From Planktothricoides raciborskii GIHE-MW2 (GTDB lineage: Bacteria; Cyanobacteriota; Cyanobacteriia; Cyanobacteriales; Laspinemataceae): a stretch of 64,000 bases of DNA. Below the pieces are notes generated by a model that did not search any database, was not told the DNA's origin, and saw only the letters and a program-made list of their open reading frames with translations. Shown piece after piece: positions 13,711 to 63,517 of the stretch. Every line of letters begins with the position of its first letter. Position 1 is the stretch's first letter. The stretch lies in contig NZ_CP159837.1 in the NCBI RefSeq assembly GCF_040564635.1, forward strand, positions 355,801 through 419,800, in the 5' to 3' direction. The position numbers and the translations under genes are program-made.

Positions 13711-16700
13711 ATGCTGAATTCACTATTGAATCAAATCCTGAAAAACTCGATCGCCCAACGGTGGCTGATTGTGGTTGGTGCGATTTTTGTCACCGTCTGG
13801 GGCATCTTTACCATCACCCTTATGCCGTTAGATGTGTTTCCCGAATTTGCGCCGCCCCAAGTGGACATTCACACGGAAGCCTCTGGACTGGCCCCAGAGG
13901 AAGTGGAAACTCAAATTACGGTGCCGATCGAAAGTGCTGTCAATGGCTTGCCCGGAGTCACGATGGTGCGATCGTCCTCCAAAGTTGGACTATCAATGGT
14001 TCATGTAGTCTTTGACCAAGAGGCAGATATTTATAAAGCCCGACAAGCGGTGACAGAGCGACTTCAGCAGGTGACAAATCAACTGCCAGAGGGAACGCAT
14101 CCGCCAGAAATTTCGCCCCTGGTTTCGCCTTTGGGGACAATTTTGCAGTACGCCTTCACTGTTAATGGACAAGGGCAAACTTCGTTAATGGATTTGCGCC
14201 GTCTTGTGGAAGTCACCCTGAGTAATCAAATTCTTTCTGTAGCGGGAGTCTCTCAAGTCACGGTTTATGGGGGAGATGAACGGCAGGAACAGGTCTTAGT
14301 CGATCCCGCAAAGCTGCGATCGCTGAATGTTTCCCTTACCGAAGTCACCGATGCCGCCAGAAGTGCCAATGCCAATGCTCCGGGCGGCTTTCTCATTGGT
14401 GGCGGTCAAGAGTTATTGGTGCGGGGTATGGGGCAAATCAAATCGATTGAAGATTTGCAACAGTCTGTTGTCAAAGTCGAAAATAACCAACCGATTCTCT
14501 TAAAAGATGTGGCAGAGGTGAAAACCGGCAATGCCTTAAAACGCGGGGATGCCAGTTTTAATGGCCAGCCTGCGGTGGTGCTGATGATTAATAAACAGCC
14601 CGATGTGGATACGCCGACGGTTACGAAAGCCGTAGAAACGGTGATGGCATCTTTGCAGAGGACATTTCCCCCAGATGTGCAGCTTGTACGGACATTTCGC
14701 CAGTCTAATTTTATTGATACGGCGATTCAAAATGTCAGTGGTTCTCTGTTAGAAGGGACTATTATTGTGTCCGTAATTATGCTGCTGTTTTTGATGAATT
14801 GGCGCACGGCGGCGATTACTCTGAGCGCAATTCCCCTATCTTTATTGATTGGGTTAATGTTGATGAAAGCCTTTGGCTTGGGCATTAATACCATGACATT
14901 AGGCGGTTTAGTGGTGGCGATCGGCTCAGTGGTGGATGATTCGATCGTAGATATGGAAAACTGCTATCGCGGACTGCGAAAAAATCAAGCCCAGGGCAAT
15001 CCAAAACATCCCTTTCAAGTGGTTTATGACACATCGGTAGAAGTGCGTTTAGCCGTAATTTTTTCCACGGTAATTATCGTGGTTGTCTTTGCACCAATTT
15101 TTAGTTTGACCGGGGTGGAAGGACGCATTTTTGCCCCAATGGGTTTGGCTTATTTACTCTCGATTTGTGCGTCTACTTTCGTCGCCATGACCCTTTCTCC
15201 AGCACTTTGTGCTATTTTGTTAGCCAACCAAACCCTGCCACAAGAAGGCACGTTGATTTCACAATGGGCCGAACGCTTATATCGTCCGTTGCTAAATCTA
15301 TCGTTAAAAACTCCTCAAATTATTCTCGGTGTGGCACTCGCGGGATTAGTCGCTACTTGCGCGATCGTGCCATCTTTAGGAAGGGTGTTTTTGCCAGAAT
15401 TTCAAGAAAAATCTTTAGTAAATTCGATGGTATTGTTTCCTGGAGTTTCCCTGGAAATGACCAATCGCGCTGGGATGGCATTGTCTAATTTAATTCAAGA
15501 TAATCCTCTCTATGAATGGGTGCAAGTGCGGGCTGGACGCGCCCCCGGAGATGCTGACGGTGCTGGGGTGAATATGGCTCATGTGGATGTGGAACTGAGC
15601 GATCGCGCCCTGGAAAAGAGAGAAGCTAGTATTAAACAACTGCGGGAAACATTCCTCAAGTTACCGGGAGTTGCGCCTAATATTGGCGGATTTATTTCTC
15701 ACCGGATGGATGAGGTTTTATCCGGGGTGAGAAGTGCGATCGCCATCAAAATATTTGGTTCTGATTTAATCGAATTACGGAAAATTGGCGAACAAGTTAG
15801 AGATGCAATTCAGCCCATTACTGGAGTGGTAGACTTGCAACTTGAACCGCAATTACCCATTCGTCAGGTACAAATTCAGTACAGTCGCGCAGCCGCAGCC
15901 AACTATGGTTTAAGCATGGCGGATATTTCTGATGTAGTCGAAACCGCCCTCAACGGTCGAATCGTCTCCCAAGTACCGGAAAATCAACAATTAATTAATA
16001 TTGTGGTGGGCTTATCAGAATCAGCCCGAAATAATCTTGATGCGATTCGCGCTATTCCCATTAGCACTCCCACGGGACAAATCATTCCCCTGAGTACCGT
16101 TGCCAAAGTGGAATATGGCATGGGAGCCAATGTAGTAAATCGGGAAAATGTGTCTCGCTTAATTGTAGTTTCTGCCAACGTCCAAGGGCGTGACTTAGGC
16201 AGTGTGGTGGGCGATATTCAATCGCAAATTCAACAAAAAATCCAACTACCCAATGGTTATTTTATCCAATACGGTGGACAATTTGAGGCAGAAGAAAATG
16301 CTACTAATAATTTATTATTATATAGCATTTTAGCGGCGATCGTTATTACAGTCTTAATGTTCTTTTCGGTGAAATCACTCTCCGCCACGATCGCCATTAT
16401 GATTAACCTACCTTTGGCTTTAGTTGGTGGGATTGTTTCCATTATTTTGACTGGTGGCGTGATTTCCGTTGCCTCTTTAATCGGATTTATTACCTTGTTT
16501 GGGGTTGCGGTGCGAAATGGTTTGTTATTAGTCGATAACTATAACCAAAAATTCGCCGAAGGAATGCCCCTGAAAGATGTAATTATTAATGGTTCTCTAG
16601 AACGAGTCAATGCCATTCTGATGACCGCTTTAACCTCCGCTTTAGGAATGTTACCATTAGCGATCGCCAGTGGCGCTGGAAATGAAATTTTACAACCCTT

Positions 16701-16866
16701 AGCGATCGTGGTTTTAGGTGGTTTATTTACTTCCACGGCGTTGACATTATTAGTCATTCCGGCTTTATATGCCAAATTTGGCAAACAATTGATGCCAAAA
16801 CCAAAGCCAGCCGTTGTAGAAATCAGTTCTTTTTTCAGACCTGAATCATCAACGGAAGCAAGCTAA
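13711..16866 (+). CDS. RND efflux permease, heavy-metal-efflux (CusA/CzcA-like) family
   Basis: 1051 aa, 12-TM RND architecture; N-terminal pattern ...VNGLPGVTMVRSSSKVGLSMVHVVFDQEADIYKARQAV and TM4 AIGSVVDDSIVDMEN resemble CusA/CzcA. Confidence 0.85.
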   Translation: MLNSLLNQILKNSIAQRWLIVVGAIFVTVWGIFTITLMPLDVFPEFAPPQVDIHTEASGLAPEEVETQITVPIESAVNGLPGVTMVRSSSKVGLSMVHVVFDQEADIYKARQAVTERLQQVTNQLPEGTHPPEISPLVSPLGTILQYAFTVNGQGQTSLMDLRRLVEVTLSNQILSVAGVSQVTVYGGDERQEQVLVDPAKLRSLNVSLTEVTDAARSANANAPGGFLIGGGQELLVRGMGQIKSIEDLQQSVVKVENNQPILLKDVAEVKTGNALKRGDASFNGQPAVVLMINKQPDVDTPTVTKAVETVMASLQRTFPPDVQLVRTFRQSNFIDTAIQNVSGSLLEGTIIVSVIMLLFLMNWRTAAITLSAIPLSLLIGLMLMKAFGLGINTMTLGGLVVAIGSVVDDSIVDMENCYRGLRKNQAQGNPKHPFQVVYDTSVEVRLAVIFSTVIIVVVFAPIFSLTGVEGRIFAPMGLAYLLSICASTFVAMTLSPALCAILLANQTLPQEGTLISQWAERLYRPLLNLSLKTPQIILGVALAGLVATCAIVPSLGRVFLPEFQEKSLVNSMVLFPGVSLEMTNRAGMALSNLIQDNPLYEWVQVRAGRAPGDADGAGVNMAHVDVELSDRALEKREASIKQLRETFLKLPGVAPNIGGFISHRMDEVLSGVRSAIAIKIFGSDLIELRKIGEQVRDAIQPITGVVDLQLEPQLPIRQVQIQYSRAAAANYGLSMADISDVVETALNGRIVSQVPENQQLINIVVGLSESARNNLDAIRAIPISTPTGQIIPLSTVAKVEYGMGANVVNRENVSRLIVVSANVQGRDLGSVVGDIQSQIQQKIQLPNGYFIQYGGQFEAEENATNNLLLYSILAAIVITVLMFFSVKSLSATIAIMINLPLALVGGIVSIILTGGVISVASLIGFITLFGVAVRNGLLLVDNYNQKFAEGMPLKDVIINGSLERVNAILMTALTSALGMLPLAIASGAGNEILQPLAIVVLGGLFTSTALTLLVIPALYAKFGKQLMPKPKPAVVEISSFFRPESSTEAS

Positions 16867-17102
16867 AACCTGTCTGGTTATTCCAGAGTATAAAAGTGCG
16901 AAACATGGCGCGATTGTCTTTACCAAGTTGGTAGGCGATCGCTTTTTTCATAACCACCCGTCAAAAGCTAAAAAAAGGGGGAAAAAGAGGGGCTAATTTG
17001 TGATAAATTATCAATTTCATGTGCTGCTATGGTCAGTAAGTGATTCCCGAATTCGGTCTGAAGGGCGATCGCTGGTTTTGAGATTCGCCTCTCTCTGGTA
17101 AG

Positions 17103-17432
17103 ATGGAAGTTATTCCGCTAAATCATCATTCGGCTGTGAAAAATTTACTTTTACTGGGAACCTTAAGTTTTACTATTGCTTTTAGCTGCGGCTTAGTTGT
17201 CGAGAAAAATGTGACTAAAAGTGCGGCGATCGGTGCGATCGCCACCATTAGCACCCTGAGTAGTGGGTTGGTTTTAAGCAAAGTCTCAGAAAAAGAACGT
17301 CAAAAGCTTCAGGGACAGACCGAAAAAGTAAAAAGCCTGGAAAGTCAAATATCAAGCCTGACAGAGAAAAAGACCAACCTGGTCAAAGTCATTAATAATA
17401 AAACTCGTTCTAAAACAAAAGTTGAACAATAA
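17103..17432 (+). CDS. small membrane-anchored coiled-coil protein, or N-terminal part of an interrupted longer gene
   Basis: 109 aa; two predicted TM helices then heptad-like EKERQKLQGQTEKVKSLESQISSLTEKKTNL; ends at a TAA that is in frame with the downstream ORF. Confidence 0.45.
   Translation: MEVIPLNHHSAVKNLLLLGTLSFTIAFSCGLVVEKNVTKSAAIGAIATISTLSSGLVLSKVSEKERQKLQGQTEKVKSLESQISSLTEKKTNLVKVINNKTRSKTKVEQ
17430..17432 (+). other. in-frame TAA separating two halves of one continuous 460-codon frame (17103-18485)
   Basis: Translation from 17433 continues in the same frame (VNAKLKEIDRLKEEINSLKLQRDTLQDVIF...YNYILEGLEKSLVFYDPQKHKTFENYLESLQPAAEELWSAYRF...) with no stop until 18485, and no ATG/GTG/TTG until the TTG at 17712. 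Confidence 0.6.
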
Positions 17433-17711
17433 GTCAACGCAAAACTAAAAGAGATCGACCGGCTAAAAGAAGAGATTAATTCTCTAAAACTCCAGCGAGA
17501 CACTCTGCAAGATGTAATCTTCAATCTGGAAACTAAAGAGAAAAAAATCCCGGCTAAACGTTGGGTTAAACCTAAAGATAAACCCATTAAGAGTACCGGA
17601 TTATACAATTACATTTTAGAGGGATTAGAGAAATCGCTAGTTTTTTATGACCCCCAAAAACACAAAACATTTGAAAATTATTTAGAATCACTCCAACCAG
17701 CGGCAGAAGAA

Positions 17712-18485
17712 TTGTGGTCTGCTTATAGATTCAATCAGGTTCAAGTCAATTATGGGGAGCCGTCAATTCAAGCCGCTTATTTAATCCGTTATTATCCCCA
17801 CTATGCTTACATGAATTACCAAATATTAGAAATGATTCATCGTCAAAATCTATTTAAATGCTTCACAGATGAAACCCTAGAAGTATGCTTGTTTGGCGCT
17901 GGTCCTTGTCCAGAAATAGTTGGGTTAAGTAAACTATTGTCAGAAAATTATCAATTTATCAAAAAATTAGTGGTAAATGTATATGATCTTGCTGGCGCTC
18001 AGTGGTCTTTAAGCAGAGAGATTACTGAGAAATTTATTGTCCCCGAATACTGGTATGGAGATTTAACAGTAAATAGTAATTACCTGGATTTATGTGAATT
18101 TAATTCGCTTCAGTCAGTTAAGCAGAGCATTAAAAGAAGCCGGTTATTTGTTTTTCAAAATTGCCTAAATGAGATTTATAATGTATACACAGTTCAATTT
18201 AATTTGAATTTTTTGTTAGATGAAATTCCTGTGGGAGGGGCGATGGTGATTATAGACTTATGCAATTACAGTCAAAATGTCACCATCGTTGATGAATTGG
18301 AAAAAAAAGTAAAAAATAGAGGTGACTTTGAAATATATTGCCCACCAATTGATAACCTTAACATTAAAGCTTGCCCAAATCTGCCACAAATTATTAAAAA
18401 ACATCTTTTGACCAGTAAAGGTAGGTTAGTCCCTCGGAGTAAAGATATCCAGTGTCTTTTTATCAGTTTACACAAAATTATTTGA
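17712..18485 (+). CDS. hypothetical protein, possible class-I methyltransferase-like fold; putative partner of the convergent DUF1848 gene
   Basis: TTG start in the ORF track; the real N-terminus may lie upstream (see in-frame stop). Motif-I-like VCLFGAGPCPE followed by an acidic beta-2 end (NVYDL) suggests a Rossmann/SAM-MTase-like fold; AT-rich codon usage. Confidence 0.45.
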   Translation: MWSAYRFNQVQVNYGEPSIQAAYLIRYYPHYAYMNYQILEMIHRQNLFKCFTDETLEVCLFGAGPCPEIVGLSKLLSENYQFIKKLVVNVYDLAGAQWSLSREITEKFIVPEYWYGDLTVNSNYLDLCEFNSLQSVKQSIKRSRLFVFQNCLNEIYNVYTVQFNLNFLLDEIPVGGAMVIIDLCNYSQNVTIVDELEKKVKNRGDFEIYCPPIDNLNIKACPNLPQIIKKHLLTSKGRLVPRSKDIQCLFISLHKII

Positions 18486-18582
18486 GTATAAAATTAATCT
18501 AAATTTATTAGTTCAAATGAATTGCAAATATGTAGAATATTCTGCGATCGCCCAACTTAATTAAAAATTTTCAAATATGCGA

Positions 18583-19473
18583 CTATTCCACTAAAACAGG
18601 TGAGTTAGGATCGTGTTTTCGGTAATTTTCGCGGGCGCGATCAAAACTGGTCGTTGCATAGCAATACTGACAGCCAAACAAGCAAGTATCATACATACCA
18701 ATATCTCGGCTTTGGACACAACCACAAGCTTCTCGTTGACCCGGATCTTTTTGATGATTCACGTCTATGTCAAACACCTCCTTAATATAATCATCATCGA
18801 TACATTTACCATGCTGAATGCCATAGGCGGATAAATCACAAGATTCCGCACAGCTAAAAAGCCTTATCCCATATTTATAGGCAATTTTTGATATTTCTGG
18901 CAAAAACTTGTCCTTGACTTCCGGGATATCTGCAAAATTAATAATTTTAATATTTTGTTCTCGTTCAATTGTTTTCAGACGAGGATTATTTTTAGCGTAC
19001 CGATCCATAAAACTCAAAACGCACCGAGTAGCGGCGGGGAATAATCTATCGGCAATATCGCCGAATTGCTGAAGATGAAACTCGATATCGGTTGCCGAAC
19101 TAAAAACAATCGGATCGTAGCGCCAAATAACTTTGCGGTAGCCGATCGCCTGGACTAATTCGTGAAATGTGGCGATCGCCCGTTCCCAGGGAATGTTATT
19201 CTGGTCTAGAAACCGGGGATTATTCATAATTGTAAACTGAAAATAATATTTATATCCCCGTTCATCTAACTCTCGTAAGGATGACAACAAAGGTTTCGGG
19301 TTGCGCGTCCAGAAAACGATAACTTCTACATTTTCTGGAGTTAAATCAATCCGGGAAACTTGCTGGCGATTAAAGGGATTAGGCACCAGGCAGTAGCCCG
19401 CACGAATGCGATTCATAAACCATTGATGGTAAAAGGCAGGAATATCAGTCCGTCGGCTGGCACTAATAATCAT
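18583..19473 (-). CDS. DUF1848-family protein with C-terminal CxxxCxxC (radical-SAM-type Fe-S cluster motif)
   Basis: MIISASRRTDIPAFY N-terminus typical of DUF1848; C-terminal CGC...CLFGCQYCYAT contains C-x3-C-x2-C. Confidence 0.8.
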   Translation of the reverse strand: MIISASRRTDIPAFYHQWFMNRIRAGYCLVPNPFNRQQVSRIDLTPENVEVIVFWTRNPKPLLSSLRELDERGYKYYFQFTIMNNPRFLDQNNIPWERAIATFHELVQAIGYRKVIWRYDPIVFSSATDIEFHLQQFGDIADRLFPAATRCVLSFMDRYAKNNPRLKTIEREQNIKIINFADIPEVKDKFLPEISKIAYKYGIRLFSCAESCDLSAYGIQHGKCIDDDYIKEVFDIDVNHQKDPGQREACGCVQSRDIGMYDTCLFGCQYCYATTSFDRARENYRKHDPNSPVLVE

Positions 19474-19577
19474 ATTATCTAATCGATCTGTGTAATTATC
19501 GCACTACCATAATAGTATATCCCTACTAAATATTATGTAAGCTTTAAAAAATATTGAATATAATTTAAAATATGAGC

Positions 19578-19610
19578 ATATAAATTATTCTAGGCTAGAA
19601 TAATTTATAT
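19578..19610. promoter_or_regulatory. 33-bp perfect palindrome ATATAAATTATTCTAG-G-CTAGAATAATTTATAT (operator-like)
   Basis: 16-bp perfectly complementary arms around a single central base, in the AT-rich 310-bp divergent intergenic region between the DUF1848 gene and the 19784 gene. Confidence 0.4.
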
Positions 19611-19783
19611 TCACTTATTTAATTTAAATTAAACTAATTTCAAGGCAAAACAAGCCCAAAAAACACCAGGTTTACCCTCTACCTATATTATAGACAGTAT
19701 ATACACAGTGCCTAGACTTTGCATTGAGTTTCCATTTTGTTATAAAATGATGTAAACCCACTGGCAAAAACGCCATTGAATTT

Positions 19784-25485: not shown

Positions 25486-25785
25486 ATGCCAATTTTAGAA
25501 TTTTTAGTAGCGTTCGGAATAGGAGTATTATCATTTCTATTCCTATCGAATACCATCAGTAAAAAAAATATTATGCAAAGACTTGATGAGGCATTTTATC
25601 AGCTTTTAGAATCAGAAAATGGTCACATTACGCTGATTCAATTGGCCACCACTGCTAGAGTGGACGCGGAAGTAACTCGCGCCTACTTAGAACATCAAGC
25701 CAAAGCGTTTGATGCTACTTTAGAAGTCGATGCTGATGGCGATTTTTTTTATCGTTTTCCTAAACTTCATCAAGGAAATCAATAA
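25486..25785 (+). CDS. small hypothetical protein with one N-terminal TM helix
   Basis: Likely start MPILEFLVAFGIGVLSFLFL; 100 aa; no recognisable family. Confidence 0.4.
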   Translation: MPILEFLVAFGIGVLSFLFLSNTISKKNIMQRLDEAFYQLLESENGHITLIQLATTARVDAEVTRAYLEHQAKAFDATLEVDADGDFFYRFPKLHQGNQ

Positions 25786-25925
25786 TTGATATATCAATTA
25801 TTGATGATAAAAATTGATTGGTTAATTTTTGGTAATTTTATTTTTATTTATGCTAAAATAAATCAAACATTTTTATGTTAATTACATCAAAATAAGAAAA
25901 ATTTAATTAAATAAATTCGGCGGAA

Positions 25926-31861: not shown

Positions 31862-32144
31862 TTCTCAAGCTTGTAGCTATTACCCACAATTCAGTCAGCA
31901 TTAGCCTCCAGAAATCGGGTGAGTCGTTTAACGACTCACCCGATTTTGGCGATCGCCCTTGGGGAGATCCACCCTTGCCGTCGGGATGCCTCAGATTTAG
32001 AGCAGTATTCCGATCGGCGTCTCTAGAATCAGCCCGATCTGACCGCCCTATAGCTGGTTTTATATGCATGAAAAGAAGCTTGTGATCTTTAGTAAGTTAA
32101 AATAACTGGATGTAACCTTAAACTCCGAAGAGAAAAAACTCATT

Positions 32145-33345: not shown

Positions 33346-33608
33346 GGATTTCGGTAAATTTGGGACATTTTTCTGGGAAATTTTTCTGGGTTCTGAGCGG
33401 GCGATATTTTCTGAGAGTTTATACCATTTACAAAAAATCATGGTAGGGGCGCTACGTCCAAGCGCCCCCGCACATTGCGATCGCTTGGGGTGCTTTGCAT
33501 TGCGCCCCTAGATCAGCCCAAATAAATCTCGTATAAGTAATTTAAGTCATTTAAATAATTTAATTAATTATTTAAACTAAGAATTAGTTTAAATAATTAT
33601 CACTTTCA

Positions 33609-46746: not shown

Positions 46747-47037
46747 CTTAATTTTTGTTGTTGGTTGGTTGTTGTTTGTTGGGTAGGGATTCTTTGGTTG
46801 TTGTTGGTTGTTGGTTGGTTGTTGGGTAGGGATTCTTTGGTTGTTGGTTGTTGGTTGGTTGTTGGGGAAAGAGGAAAGTTGTAGGGGCGAATGGCCATTC
46901 GCCCCTACAAGTGAAAATAAGTATCACTATTCACTATTCACTATTCACTTTCCCCTCTGCCCCTCTGCCCCCCTGCACCCCTACACCCTACACCCCACAC
47001 CCTACACCCTACACCCTACACCCTCTCTTCCCTGGTT
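46747..47037. repeat. complex repeat element B (second copy of element A, with expanded TTGGTTGTTGG block)
   Basis: Shares the GTAGGGGCGAATGGCCATTCGCCCCTAC palindrome, CACTATT triplet, CTCTGCCC pair and CCCTACACC heptamer array with element A. Confidence 0.8.
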
Positions 47038-47587
47038 AATTTTTGGGCTGGGTAATCAGGGCTACATCTATTCTATCTTTTTTCGGTTGGGTAATTTCAG
47101 CCCGGATTCCTGGCCCAAAAAACTTTTCGATTTTTTCCCGTTTTTCTTGCCAGGTTTCTAGGGTAAATTTGGGTGAGTCAAATTCTAAAATTAACCCATA
47201 GTTGTCATCAATTTCTATTTCCCGTAATGCCGCCAGTACCGGACGTTCTTTGTCGTTAGGATTTAAGCCAAATCGCTGTAATGAATCATCCAAGTGAGCA
47301 TCTTGACCGTAACGATACCGGGTCACGTCTTTGCGGATTTGATTTTGAATTTCCGTGGCCATTTTTTGACGCAATGCCAGGACTTTCTCGGAGGTTGGTT
47401 GACTAAATGGGACGGGTTTGAGTTCGGCAGATTTGAGGGCTAAACCTCCGAGTAATAAGGGAATGCCATAAAAAAATCCGGCTAGGTTTAAGGTGGCATA
47501 GTCGGCAAAGTAAGCCGCAAATCCCACTACGGTGAGGATACCGCCAATGACTAAACCGACAGAACTGAGAGAGATTTTACCAAACAT
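47036..47587 (-). CDS. conserved cyanobacterial membrane protein (two N-terminal TM helices + soluble C-terminal domain; possibly DUF2854)
   Basis: MFGKISLSSVGLVIGGILTVVGFAAYFADYATLNLAGFFYGIPLLLGGLAL... then a charged soluble domain; family name from memory. Confidence 0.5.
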   Translation of the reverse strand: MFGKISLSSVGLVIGGILTVVGFAAYFADYATLNLAGFFYGIPLLLGGLALKSAELKPVPFSQPTSEKVLALRQKMATEIQNQIRKDVTRYRYGQDAHLDDSLQRFGLNPNDKERPVLAALREIEIDDNYGLILEFDSPKFTLETWQEKREKIEKFFGPGIRAEITQPKKDRIDVALITQPKN

Positions 47588-50912: not shown

Positions 50913-51215
50913 TTGGATGTGTTTGACCCAATCACAATGGAAGTGGAGTCAGAGTCAGGAAACAACGTTCCCGCGTGGTTTCTTGACACAAACTATGACG
51001 GCCTATGTTTCCATGTCAATCAGGCTTTCTTCCCCGGTACAAGTGCTTGGGACGGCATCAAGAAGGCACTAAAGAGAACCTATGATAATGAAGTTTGGGA
51101 GCATTTAGCGGGGACAATTAGCGCACCATTTGAGGCAGGGAAGCATCAGGAAATTGCGGTTAAAGTTATTGATGACCGGGGTAATGAATTGTTATTTACT
51201 AAGCGTTTATCGTAG
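50913..51215 (+). pseudogene. C-terminal remnant of a beta-class N6-adenine/N4-cytosine DNA methyltransferase (Type III Mod / Type II MTase tail)
   Basis: ...WFLDTNYDGLCFHVNQAFF...ALKRTYDNEVWEHLAGTISAPFEAGKHQEIAVKVIDDRGNELL matches, from memory, the conserved C-terminal tail (W.iDtdYDg..F...Ff......L...l.......w..l....S.PFe.G....IAVKVID..GnE) of these MTases; no catalytic N-terminal region exists upstream (300 bp of AT-rich non-coding DNA). Confidence 0.45.
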
Positions 51216-51236
51216 TTATTGGAGCTACTGTAGAAA

Positions 51237-52406
51237 ATGAATTACCGAGAAAATGAAATTCAAGAACCTTTTTTTGATATCGATATTTCTGAAGGAATCG
51301 ATTACTCCTCAATAGATTGTAATAATCGCCACTTTCAACAAGCCCAGCGATTCCATCAAAAACTGAGATCAGTAAATCGGTTTATTCAGTATTGTTTTAT
51401 GTATGACCCGTTAGTCAATTTAGAAACAGGAAATTCAATATCAATTTATCTAAATCCTAGGCTACTTATTGTACACAATATTTTGGAAGAAAGCAATAAA
51501 ACGTACAGTCAAATTTTTATTTTAAATAATCTCATCAAAATACCTAGTCTTAAAAAGCTAGAACAACAATATTTAGAAACCACAAAACGTGATAGCGAGG
51601 ACTATTTGCAAAAAGCTCAAATGCAAATTAACTGTTATAGCTGTATTGCACCATTCCGAATTATAAATCCAGAACAAATAACTGAAGAATACTTAAATAA
51701 ATACTCGGGTAAAAACAATCAGTCAAAGGTCACGGATAAAAAAATTGATTTGATTAATAAAAAAAGAAACGCTAAAAAATTTGAAACTAGCGAAGTATTG
51801 TATTACAAGCAATATATTTGTTGTGAACATGAAGGTGAAAAAGGATGGATTATTCTTTATAGAAGCCCACTTTTAAGTATCGATGATTTTAAATCAGAAA
51901 TAATAGGTATAGGTGAAACTCTCTTAGAGGCAGATTTAGACTTTCAAAGGAAAAAAGCCGGGTTATTTTTAGAAACTATGGAGTTAAAGCAAAATGTTTT
52001 AAATTCAAACACACCAGTTAACATAAATCAGATGAGAACTTTTTGCCAACAATACGACAAGAATATAAAATATGATAGTTTTACTCACGAATACACTGGT
52101 TGTTTCAAAAGAAAAACATTTGGGTTTAAGCTAACTTGTCGGTCTGAATTATATAAATTTACAGTTTCCGTTTCGTCTCATTCTACTAAATGGACTGTGG
52201 AAACCCACATAAATGCAAGATACAAAATACCAATAGAAGCAACAGGTAAATCCTTGGAAGAAGCTTTTAACAAAGCTAAAGAAAAGCATGACCGTATTTT
52301 ATCAAATCCGGAACTTATTCAGAAGGAAATTGCATTTATAGAGCAAGACTACCAACCAAACTATGATGAATATATAAACCTAGACCTAAGTTCCGAGTTT
52401 GAATGA
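51237..52406 (+). CDS. hypothetical protein, AT-rich (Lys/Asn/Ile-rich), no recognisable family; candidate restriction-endonuclease-like partner of the MTase remnant
   Basis: 389-aa intact ORF starting 22 bp after the MTase remnant; GC content clearly below the window average. Confidence 0.55.
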   Translation: MNYRENEIQEPFFDIDISEGIDYSSIDCNNRHFQQAQRFHQKLRSVNRFIQYCFMYDPLVNLETGNSISIYLNPRLLIVHNILEESNKTYSQIFILNNLIKIPSLKKLEQQYLETTKRDSEDYLQKAQMQINCYSCIAPFRIINPEQITEEYLNKYSGKNNQSKVTDKKIDLINKKRNAKKFETSEVLYYKQYICCEHEGEKGWIILYRSPLLSIDDFKSEIIGIGETLLEADLDFQRKKAGLFLETMELKQNVLNSNTPVNINQMRTFCQQYDKNIKYDSFTHEYTGCFKRKTFGFKLTCRSELYKFTVSVSSHSTKWTVETHINARYKIPIEATGKSLEEAFNKAKEKHDRILSNPELIQKEIAFIEQDYQPNYDEYINLDLSSEFE

Positions 52407-56218: not shown

Positions 56219-56595
56219 CCATTTACAAAAATTCATCCAACAGTAGGGGCGCTACGGAAAAGCGCCCAAATAAACCTGGGAATTGTATAGTTTCTAAAAT
56301 TAGTAAAATAGTCGATTTCAACCGCCTGTAGGGGTCAACGGCCGTTGACCCCTACAGGCGGGGATTTTAATCCCCGCCGGATTTTAATCCCCGCAATCGT
56401 CGGTTAATTGCGGGGGTACATAAACCGCCGGGGGTTAAAACCCCCGGCTAATAGCGCAAGTCGGTTAAAACCGACTTTGGATTATTTTGAAATTGGTAAT
56501 TTTATTTACAAAAATTCATACAACAGTAGGGGAGCAATGCTTGCGCCCAAATAAACCAGGGAATTGTAGCAGTAGTTTCTAAAATTGGTATAACC
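56219..56595. repeat. two about 90-bp direct repeats (56219-56312, 56497-56595) bracketing a 185-bp array of six hairpins with TTAA/TTTAA/TTAAAA loops (includes a perfect 38-bp palindrome at 56322-56359)
   Basis: Direct repeats about 85% identical (ATTTACAAAAATTCATmCAACAGTAGGGG...GCGCCCAAATAAACC.GGGAATTGTA...AGTTTCTAAAATT); hairpins CGCCTGTAGGGGTCAACGGCCGTTGACCCCTACAGGCG, GGGGATTTTAATCCCC (x2), CCCCGCAAT..ATTGCGGGG, CCGGGGGTTAAAACCCCCGG, AAGTCGGTTAAAACCGACTT. Confidence 0.75.
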
Positions 56596-63305: not shown

Positions 63306-63456
63306 TTGGGTTGAACCAAAGTGAAACCCAACATTTGTCAGGTGGCAATTTTCAGTAATGCCTAACATCTGTTATTTCGGTTGGGTTTCGTGCCTCAACC
63401 CAACCTACTACCTTTCCTCTTTAAAAGTTGGGTTTCGTGCCTCAACCCAACCTACA
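63306..63456. repeat. three hairpins sharing the stem GTTGGGTT/AACCCAAC in the sheath-tube intergenic region
   Basis: GTTGGGTTGAACCAAAGTGAAACCCAAC (63306-63333) and two direct copies of GTTGGGTTTCGTGCCTCAACCCAACCTAC (63379-63408, 63427-63456). Confidence 0.7.
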
Positions 63457-63517
63457 ATTTTCCATGTGTCATTCCAGCAAACAAACGATGCGGGGATGAC
63501 ATTTACCAGATCATCAA

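Follow-up and report, generated by a model that had tools for sequence, protein, structure and literature searches.

The window analyzed here, a 64-kb stretch of the Planktothricoides raciborskii GIHE-MW2 genome, contains an AT-rich islet that we interpret, with a probability of roughly 0.4, as a copy, now degraded, of a mobile module coupling a methyl writer to an eraser or processor of the mark, with a DUF1848 protein as the O2-independent counterpart of AlkB. This interpretation is built from folds, family memberships, gene linkage, the pattern of gene presence and absence, a nonsense codon, a plasmid copy and defense-island contexts. The core of the proposed module would be a class I SAM-methyltransferase-fold domain with lineage-specific accessory parts, encoded downstream of a repair-type AlkB. 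We speculate that the methyltransferase-like protein may mark DNA or RNA by methylation in the role of a conflict or defense effector, that the O2-dependent AlkB may erase or further process this mark, and that DUF1848 may do so by O2-independent 5'-deoxyadenosyl-radical chemistry at a putative [4Fe-4S]/SAM site supplied from its C terminus. Eraser action of this kind would protect or reset the cell's own nucleic acids. The window would represent a state of the module with an intact DUF1848 gene, no AlkB and a writer gene broken by a nonsense codon.

A first-pass annotation of the sequence had described an AT-rich islet and suggested horizontal acquisition; the first point is confirmed and the second is supported. 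The GC content of 17080-19735 is 0.362, compared with a window mean of 0.441 (standard deviation 0.032 among windows of the same size); only 0.3% of windows of this size are as GC-poor, with the minimum at 17101. The low value derives mainly from the methyltransferase-like partner gene (0.351) and intergenic DNA (0.271), the DUF1848 gene having a GC content of 0.416. Mobility is indicated by a copy on a Planktothrix plasmid and by a synteny break that coincides exactly with the islet edge. The neighbors of the DUF1848 gene in the window are an RND pump gene, the partner gene and an LmeA-like gene.

The DUF1848 gene (18583-19473, minus strand) is an intact 296-aa open reading frame that encodes a radical-SAM-fold protein, starts MIISASRRTDIPAFY and carries CLFGCQYCYAT. 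Its proposed family membership is confirmed by a Pfam search, in which PF08902 matched over its full length (profile positions 1-262 of 262; E=3.9e-99; 332.2 bits against a cut-off of 30.5). The Cys motif noted in the first-pass annotation is likewise real: the codons for C264-x3-C268-x2-C271 (CLFGCQYC; 18661-18684, minus strand) specify putative [4Fe-4S] ligands that are invariant in an alignment of 37 DUF1848 homologs (55-92% identity). Five more Cys (C28, C208, C224, C250 and C252) are invariant in the same sequences, which keep a C-terminal cluster of the form CGC...CX3CX2C; an aromatic residue precedes the last Cys, and CX3CXYC is invariant. Every invariant residue of the alignment is retained by the window protein. 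The protein has the radical SAM core fold (a partial or full TIM barrel) and differs from canonical radical SAM enzymes (HemN, PFL-AE, spore photoproduct lyase, RlmN/Cfr) in its C-terminal Cys motif, its five further invariant Cys and the lack of a PF04055 match, Pfam returning PF08902 alone. Whereas HemN/PFL-AE-type enzymes carry the motif in the loop after strand 1, this loop in DUF1848 reads SRRTDIP, also invariant, and the CX3CX2C motif lies at residues 264-271 of 296. A PDB sequence search with DUF1848 returned no significant match. DUF1848 forms a large family (>8000 clusters at 90% identity) and is rare on phages (8 records) and plasmids (6 records). The model is of low confidence around the Cys motif and in the loop that follows strand 1 (residues 8-12), so binding of a cluster and of SAM is putative.

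The partner gene (17136-18485, plus strand) comprises 449 codons in a single frame, interrupted by one nonsense codon. The stretch from 17103 to 18485 forms one plus-strand reading frame of 461 codons whose sole in-frame stop is a TAA at 17430-17432; the true start is probably the GTG at 17136, since MKNLLLLGT is the N terminus of the homologs and ATC replaces the window's ATG 17103 in the closest relative. The TAA, which the first-pass annotation missed, falls at partner codon 99, where the window reads CAATAAGTC and the 95%-identical relative L005 reads CAAGAAGTC, so that a single G-to-T change separates TAA from GAA. Beyond the TAA, the reading frame offers no start before TTG 17712, which lies within the conserved domain. 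Partner homologs are 443-458 aa long, and one of them (P0001) is 94% identical and uninterrupted. Relative to L005, dN/dS is 0.21 for the partner and 0.21-0.29 for the two islet genes, the same as for neighboring genes; the stop is thus recent or a sequencing error.

In the partner, a coiled coil of ~100 aa and a class I methyltransferase-fold domain resembling Rsm22/METTL17 (17583-18482, plus strand) accompany a pair of hydrophobic helices at the N terminus. The methyltransferase-fold domain contains motif I (FGAGPCPE), the acidic residue of YDL and a conserved FQNCLNE. That the partner has a methyltransferase fold, as first proposed, is supported by a seven-stranded Rossmann-like fold, a glycine-rich motif I and an acidic residue that closes strand 2. 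Among 52 family members, F104, E111 and D135 of the FGAGPxPE and YD(I/L) motifs show no variation, and conservation is at least 90% for G105, A106, G107 and P110. Its best structural matches are the rRNA-binding Rsm22 and METTL17, mitoribosomal small-subunit assembly methyltransferase-like proteins, and this similarity exceeds that to generic methyltransferases. However, sequence identity to them is 12-14%, the accessory domains differ, and the motifs QAAYLIRYYP and FQNCLNE are conserved in the partner family alone; no Pfam Rsm22 match places the partner in that sequence family. A PDB sequence search with the partner-family profile likewise gave nothing significant. Methyltransf_34 (PF11312) scores the window partner at 12.9-13.2 bits, below its gathering threshold of 26, and weakly matches 12 of the 52 relatives (best E=5e-5); a DUF1848 neighbor in locus L050 passes it (31.7 bits). 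Yeast Bmt6, an m3U methyltransferase, may belong to Methyltransf_34, a point that the literature consulted did not confirm and that we do not use as evidence. The partner's unnamed family thus has a class I methyltransferase fold like that of Rsm22/METTL17, and the partner is a putative methyltransferase. No family members were found in viral contigs. Writer-type genes are disrupted in the window, L038 and L084, which fits a costly effector.

The name TcmP (three-Cys-motif partner protein), which does exist in NCBIfam and had been suggested for the partner, does not apply. The two have a single idea in common, that of a partner gene beside a three-Cys-motif protein. The NCBIfam library gives no match to the window partner at E≤1, the model matches none of 10 representative DUF1848 neighbors, and TcmP is absent from the 25 families listed, those matched by most of the 103 DUF1848 neighbors. 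PGAP labels the Planktothrix partner ortholog "hypothetical protein."

The dominant conserved neighbor of the partner family is AlkB, not DUF1848. Of 33 assessable cyanobacterial partner loci, 29 have an AlkB gene directly upstream in the same orientation (median gap 20 nt). The linked AlkB is ALKBH3-like (E=5.5e-45) and of the repair type (ALKBH2/3-like, bacterial group 1B). Enzymes of this type oxidatively strip methyl groups from base-pairing nitrogens, as in m1A and m3C. All six Bacteroidota loci share an operon that runs from AlkB through a partner domain fused to an Hsp70-like ATPase and a UvrD-like helicase to an uncharacterized gene; at least one of them, L128, adds DUF1848. An identity of the 820-900-aa partner-domain proteins as UG25 methylase-reverse transcriptases was ruled out, these being the Hsp70-like fusions, and the PADLOC candidate PDC-M61 corresponds to this Hsp70 form of the AlkB-linked module. 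Depending on lineage, the partner domain is attached to a membrane anchor and coiled coil, to TPR/pentapeptide repeats, to an Hsp70-like ATPase or to a RecQ/DpdF-like helicase. The Bacteroidota modules sit in defense islands, among CBASS, AbiH, GmrSD and type I RM genes and integrases, and a further copy resides on the Planktothrix plasmid. Within the 64-kb window we detected no AlkB, nor a remnant upstream of the partner. The best tblastn candidate (47105-47509, E=0.48) was rejected; this open reading frame reads like a small membrane protein rather than a dioxygenase.

In one cyanobacterial clade, DUF1848 joins or replaces AlkB. Six full copies and one remnant of DUF1848 lie beside the partner among 35 cyanobacterial genome loci, in addition to the plasmid copy. 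Loci without AlkB (the window, L005, L008, L013 and L014, the last with a 30-aa AlkB remnant) all have DUF1848, L023 keeps AlkB with an 82-aa DUF1848 remnant, and L015, L016, L084 and the Planktothrix plasmid locus L120 have partner, AlkB and DUF1848 together. No assessable locus has neither gene, a pattern that depends on few independent loss events, and in several lineages, including that of the window, DUF1848 is the last neighbor of the AlkB/DUF1848 kind. The cyanobacterial pair persists through divergence of the partner to 45% identity and through changes in the flanking genes. Among 69 unrelated metagenomic loci, DUF1848 adjoins a member of the partner superfamily in 21 (~30%; assigned by hhalign at 98%, 95% and 90%), mostly at gaps of -10 to +43 nt. 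At least four gene clusters of distinct sequence show this adjacency, in both orientations and with stop and start codons that often overlap. The proposal that the two genes form a recurrent pair therefore stands, whereas DUF1848 as the partner's main neighbor gives way to AlkB.

Two bodies of published work bear on these patterns. AlkB requires O2, and typical obligate anaerobes lack it; the group 1B AlkBs of cyanobacteria function in repair (PMC2790896). DUF1848 occurs in the anaerobes Parabacteroides, Roseburia, Subdoligranulum and Methanosphaera, typically without AlkB. Together with the alternation of AlkB and DUF1848 and with the radical SAM fold, this occurrence counts in favor of the writer/eraser reading. 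Methylase-reverse transcriptase fusions of the UG25 group associate with DUF1848 (PMC9226505), so that UG25 also links DUF1848 to a methyltransferase domain. PADLOC lists RTasDUF1848 as an accessory gene of these defense-associated reverse transcriptases, and the window protein matches the same family over its full length with a high score and has the same C-terminal Cys cluster. The window locus differs from UG25 in that no methylase-reverse transcriptase fusion adjoins DUF1848, no reverse transcriptase is nearby, and the partner is separate, membrane-anchored and on the opposite strand. Of the earlier suggestion of a nucleic-acid or small-molecule modification module, the nucleic-acid link gains support from AlkB, the helicase fusions and the reverse-transcriptase association.

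The general logic, with a nucleic-acid-modifying enzyme beside its remover on mobile or defense-island DNA, would be shared with AlkB/ALKBH2-3 direct-reversal repair and with modules that pair a writer with an enzymatic antidote, such as DarT/DarG. The proposed module would use methylation and demethylation instead of the ADP-ribosylation of DarT/DarG, with a putative toxicity, and the window differs from AlkB/ALKBH2-3 repair in having no AlkB, only the putative analog DUF1848. Literature searches found no description of an AlkB/methyltransferase-like (+Hsp70)/UvrD-like operon, and to our knowledge reversible base methylation has not been demonstrated as an anti-phage logic. This defense-island operon is a candidate anti-phage system, and the exchange of AlkB for DUF1848 beside one methyltransferase-like gene yields a testable hypothesis for m1A/m3C reversal in anaerobes. 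The broadest version of the reading, with DUF1848 as an O2-independent radical-SAM demethylase (an anaerobic AlkB counterpart) and the partner family as the methylating effector of an undescribed conflict or defense class spanning Cyanobacteria, Bacteroidota and many anaerobes, is one we consider rather unlikely. Weighing against the writer/eraser reading, similarity to Rsm22/METTL17 leaves the substrate undefined, and a membrane anchor is odd for a nucleic-acid enzyme; the convergent layout in the window and the many DUF1848 loci that have no methyltransferase-like neighbor (both described below) also count against it.

In another reading, the methyltransferase-like protein would act at the membrane on a protein, lipid or small molecule, with AlkB and DUF1848 only clearing collateral alkylation damage or being unrelated. 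We regard this as very improbable, given operon-style coupling to the nucleic-acid-specific AlkB in two phyla, RecQ/DpdF-like fusions, UvrD-like helicases in the same operons and Rsm22/METTL17 as best structural matches. Where AlkB and DUF1848 co-occur, sequential roles may fit as well as redundant ones, and the module could instead install a methyl or carboxymethyl group that AlkB or DUF1848 then oxidizes or rearranges to a stable base, for self-marking or RNA tuning. ALKBH8, which combines methyltransferase and AlkB domains, and operons of a 5mC methylase with TET/JBP work by such sequential modification; the three genes occur together at L015, L016, L084, L120 and L128, and the helicase and RM-rich surroundings recall epigenetic self-marking systems. 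Yet most loci have AlkB alone or DUF1848 alone, which is unexpected for successive steps, and the linked AlkB belongs with the ALKBH2/3 repair enzymes rather than with ALKBH8 or TET, making this an unlikely account.

We judge equally unlikely that DUF1848 is an autonomous DNA/RNA repair or housekeeping enzyme that hitchhikes on the mobile islet, its biochemistry uncoupled from the partner's. The tail-to-tail layout seen at first inspection is correct (the plus-strand gene with VCLFGAGPCPE and NVYDL ends 97 nt from DUF1848, across a spacer at 18486-18582) and recurs in seven cyanobacterial loci with spacers of 46-188 nt; being convergent, the two window genes are not co-transcribed. Around 70% of DUF1848 loci have no methyltransferase-like neighbor, and housekeeping-like contexts exist, such as LigA and RimI synteny in six loci. 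In Parabacteroides, an endonuclease and a flavodoxin adjoin the gene. DUF1848 is also very highly conserved (55-60% identity across phyla). Set against such autonomy are the superfamily adjacency in distinct clusters with overlapping stop and start codons, the association with UG25 fusions and with Bacteroidota operon L128, and a cyanobacterial pair that outlasts partner divergence. A separate matter is whether the window copy still functions. We see about an even chance that it is dead, the partner being a pseudogene and DUF1848 a leftover with no current role in decaying acquired DNA: the nonsense codon leaves no usable restart, AlkB is missing from the window, and synteny breaks at the islet edge. 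The dN/dS values, which match those of neighboring genes, imply that any inactivation is very recent; moreover, the DUF1848 invariant residues are all kept, and the TAA may be a single-base sequencing error.

The divergent intergenic region between DUF1848 and the LmeA-like gene (19474-19783; GC 0.27) shares only its two ends with the closest relative. Promoter-like sites and terminators around it show no excess over shuffles, and Rfam gave nothing at threshold, its two sub-threshold matches both lying within coding sequence. The region contains the perfect 33-bp palindrome (16+G+16; 19578-19610) reported in the first-pass annotation, and arms of at least 14 bp arose in 0 of 5000 shuffles of the region. 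Its reading as a conserved operator was rejected: neither L005 nor any of 119 related loci has the palindrome, and five further perfect ones (arms of 14-20 bp) bring the total in the window to six. The palindrome is probably not part of the module.

The minus-strand ORF at 18583-19473 (296 amino acids) matches the Pfam DUF1848 family (PF08902) end to end (E=3.9e-99), as the first-pass annotation had proposed. Its C-terminal three-Cys motif is likewise secure: among the window protein and 36 homologues (55-92% identity; 67 invariant columns), C264-x3-C268-x2-C271 is invariant, as are the preceding C250-G-C252 and C28, C208 and C224. Two segments of the predicted structure have low confidence: the tail rich in Cys and the loop that follows strand 1 and bears an invariant SRRTDIP. 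Canonical radical SAM enzymes carry their cluster motif in this loop, whereas DUF1848 has SRRTDIP there; from these features, the modeled family looks like a radical SAM barrel with its CX3CXΦC supplied from the C terminus. DUF1848 is found in typical anaerobes (Parabacteroides, Roseburia, Subdoligranulum and Methanosphaera), and in Parabacteroides it adjoins flavodoxin and DNA/RNA endonuclease genes. Its sole functional context in the literature is that it associates with the UG25 group of reverse transcriptases, which have a methylase at the N terminus (PMC9226505); the window protein matches the PADLOC model RTasDUF1848 at 1e-49.

Tail to tail with DUF1848, as initially described, a plus-strand gene (17136-18485) ends 97 nt away. 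It encodes a member of an unnamed family whose fold is Rsm22/METTL17-like, hereafter the partner family. An earlier guess that it is TcmP, named as a "three-Cys-motif partner protein," found no backing in NCBIfam, the source of that name, which returned no match at E<=1. Pfam yields only a sub-threshold Methyltransf_34 match, and a weak match of this kind is seen in 12 of 52 family members. A profile search of 1.84 billion representatives recovered 883 relatives at E<=1e-3 (266 at E<=1e-30). The window gene's layout comprises a pair of hydrophobic helices at the N terminus, ~100 residues of coiled coil and a conserved domain of ~300 residues; variants elsewhere have a C-terminal coiled coil plus membrane helix, have TPR repeats or are short and soluble. 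In motif I (FGAGPxPE), F104 and E111 are invariant, and the glycines G105 and G107 show conservation of 90% or more, as does N196; D135, which is acidic, and the FQNCL-E residues (F191-L195, E197) do not vary either. Conservation of these residues suggests that the family is an active enzyme.

Scanning one genome per species gave 35 cyanobacterial partner loci. Of the 33 for which upstream DNA was available, 29 encode a 2OG-Fe(II) oxygenase directly upstream in the same orientation, at a median gap of 20 nt. This oxygenase is ALKBH3/ALKBH2-like (E=5.5e-45 to PDB 8jnr); the type is bacterial group 1B, which the literature presents as true alkylation-repair enzymes and the usual cyanobacterial type (PMC2790896). 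AlkB is the real partner of the methyltransferase-like gene. DUF1848 is convergent with and downstream of the partner gene in L005 (MAG "Oscillatoriales cyanobacterium S07.Bin090," the window's nearest relative, ~95% identical across the islet), L008, L013, L014, L015 and L016, survives in L023 as a remnant truncated to 82 amino acids, and adjoins the partner gene on metagenomic contigs L040 and L084. All three genes occur on Planktothrix agardhii plasmid p1, with AlkB and the partner (annotated hypothetical) co-directional and DUF1848 convergent. AlkB is absent solely where DUF1848 is present (the window, L005, L008, L013 and L014, the last keeping a 30-amino-acid AlkB fragment), and no assessable locus in the partner tree lacks both. 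In that neighbor-joining tree, DUF1848 is restricted to one clade, within which triple, AlkB-only and DUF1848-only loci are intermixed. The simplest history starts with all three genes in the ancestor, after which one or the other flanking gene was lost repeatedly. Such a pattern would be expected if AlkB and DUF1848 were functionally interchangeable, for which we consider the evidence no more than moderate because independent loss events are few.

We also clustered the neighbors of DUF1848 at 80 diverse metagenomic loci (43-60% identity). Homologues of the partner family make up four of the adjacent-gene clusters, which are distinct from one another in sequence; three of these have profile-profile probabilities of 98%, 95% and 90%, and the similarity covers the helix before motif I (Y-L/I-I-R-Y-Y-P) and therefore exceeds a common Rossmann core. 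Among the 69 loci whose flank is 1 kb or longer, 21 have a partner homologue beside DUF1848, mostly co-directional (gaps of -10 to +43 nt), and Pfam and NCBIfam annotations of 103 neighbors are most often methyltransferase domains. Directly after DUF1848, L041 (1504-6429) and L056 (1437-6365) encode fusion proteins of more than 1640 residues, in which a partner-type methyltransferase-like domain at the N terminus (residues 20-299) is joined to a RecQ/DpdF/PsyrT-like helicase (about residues 770-1200); part of an IS66 transposase is found upstream in L041. On the flanks of other DUF1848-partner pairs are GmrSD, HEPN-AbiU2 and AbiEii-like genes and an IS66 transposase. One uncultured lineage (L058, L060, L062, L063, L070, L071) has no methyltransferase-like neighbor of DUF1848, which there converges on ligA, the gene for NAD-dependent DNA ligase (3' ends overlapping by ~22 nt), and is preceded by RimI-like GNAT and TPR genes.

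In Bacteroidota, a large partner-family subgroup (820-900 amino acids) carries a C-terminal Hsp70-like ATPase. All six contexts examined (L125 5370-11275, L126 5375-11308, L128 5379-13010, L129 6319-12137, L130 6371-12281 and L131 6378-12553) encode AlkB, the partner-Hsp70 fusion, a UvrD-like helicase (about 388 amino acids) and an unknown protein (486-674 amino acids), in that order. The operons lie in defense islands, with CBASS, AbiH, GmrSD, type I or IIG restriction genes, integrases and relaxases nearby, and in L128 DUF1848 follows directly. The window partner domain is 30% identical to a Chryseobacterium fusion (E=2e-26), and the two AlkB proteins share 54% identity. The Hsp70 part weakly matches the PADLOC candidate PDC-M61B, and a ~2100-amino-acid DEAD/Helicase_C/MZB protein is encoded 3' of the operon in L128 and L131.

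The family assignments themselves are ordinary. What the searchable literature does not describe is the neighborhood logic, in which a methyltransferase-like family is linked to AlkB in different phyla and DUF1848 is the alternative neighbor; it supplies a large DUF with a precise candidate function that can be tested. Our preferred reading, with a probability of roughly 0.4, is that the methyltransferase-like protein would be a methyl "writer" on nucleic acid, which conflict systems combine with sensor or scaffold domains that vary, and that AlkB, or alternatively DUF1848, would be an "eraser or processor" keeping the cell's own nucleic acids clean. The folds, linkage, alternation, mobility and defense-island setting are observed features of these loci; we infer the substrate, the direction of chemistry, the oxygen independence and the defense role. 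DUF1848 would act by oxygen-independent radical chemistry; AlkB, because it needs O2, does not occur in typical obligate anaerobes (PMC2790896). A sequential hypermodification pathway, to be weighed against the same alternation of AlkB and DUF1848, seems unlikely to us, and to a similar degree so does the idea that DUF1848 is an autonomous repair gene that only hitch-hikes, to be set beside its recurrent partner-homologue neighbors. A methyltransferase substrate other than nucleic acid appears less probable still.

Independent of these alternatives, there are even odds that the window's module copy is simply dead. Positions 17103-18485 form one 461-codon frame with a lone in-frame TAA at 17430-17432, which is GAA in L005 (a single G-to-T change); homologues are unbroken proteins of 443-458 amino acids, the close homologue P0001 being 94% identical. 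Translation probably starts at GTG 17136, because MKNLLLLGT opens every long homologue and the window's ATG 17103 is ATC in L005. Since the earliest in-frame start 3' of the TAA, TTG 17712, falls within the conserved domain, the allele should be non-functional unless the TAA is a sequencing error. The dN/dS values against L005 (partner 0.21, DUF1848 0.29, flanking genes 0.22-0.24) point to purifying selection on both genes until very recently. Partner-type genes are also broken elsewhere, cut down to 181 amino acids in Microcystis ichthyoblabe (L038 5932-6477) and split in two ORFs in L084 (838-1850); such repeated inactivation may mean that the gene is costly. Antisense within the window gene (17639-17698, minus strand), a sub-threshold Rfam Na+ riboswitch aptamer match (29.4 bits versus 40.5) is probably due to chance.

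The 33-bp palindrome at 19578-19610 is perfect, exactly as first described, and it lies well outside what chance would give in that intergenic region, as an arm of 14 was reached in none of 5000 shuffles. It has no second copy in the window and none in 119 loci, and in L005 the middle of the DUF1848/LmeA-like intergenic region, palindrome included, is replaced by dispersed-repeat copies. We rejected it as a conserved operator: it is absent from L005 and the 119 loci, and the window holds five similar ones. Though a real feature, it probably stands outside the module, to which nothing in the sequences compared ties it. The sequence observation of the first-pass annotation was borne out, and its interpretation in part only, failing for TcmP and for the palindrome as an operator. 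The five further perfect palindromes (56322-56361, 31912-31946, 46879-46910, 33565-33599 and 25778-25805; arms 14-20 bp), three G+C-rich (one of 40 bp) and two AT-rich, together resemble a class of intergenic palindromes that occurs genome-wide. At L005 8190-8460, a dispersed repeat of 65 nt (GGGTTTCGTGG...AACCCAACCTACGAAT), in roughly three tandem copies, stands where the palindrome would be; copies also occur in the window at 56518-56591 and 63380-63473. Repeats of GCGATCGC are common in this cyanobacterial window.

The AT-richness reported for the segment is genuine: GC at 17080-19735 is 0.362, at or near the minimum for segments of that size across the 64 kb (mean 0.442, sd 0.032), owing mainly to the partner gene (0.351) and intergenic DNA (0.271), with DUF1848 at 0.416. 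Homology to L005 begins at 17083 (L005 5651), 53 nt 5' of the partner GTG; synteny with this 95%-identical locus breaks exactly at the partner gene's left edge. The left flank is an RND efflux pump (13711-16866) in the window versus different genes in L005, and on the right the two are collinear from 19729 for >4 kb. A second islet at 50913-52406 is even richer in AT (GC about 0.31) and contains a 389-amino-acid ORF (51237-52406), without obvious relatives on reading, with a 100-amino-acid ORF before it.
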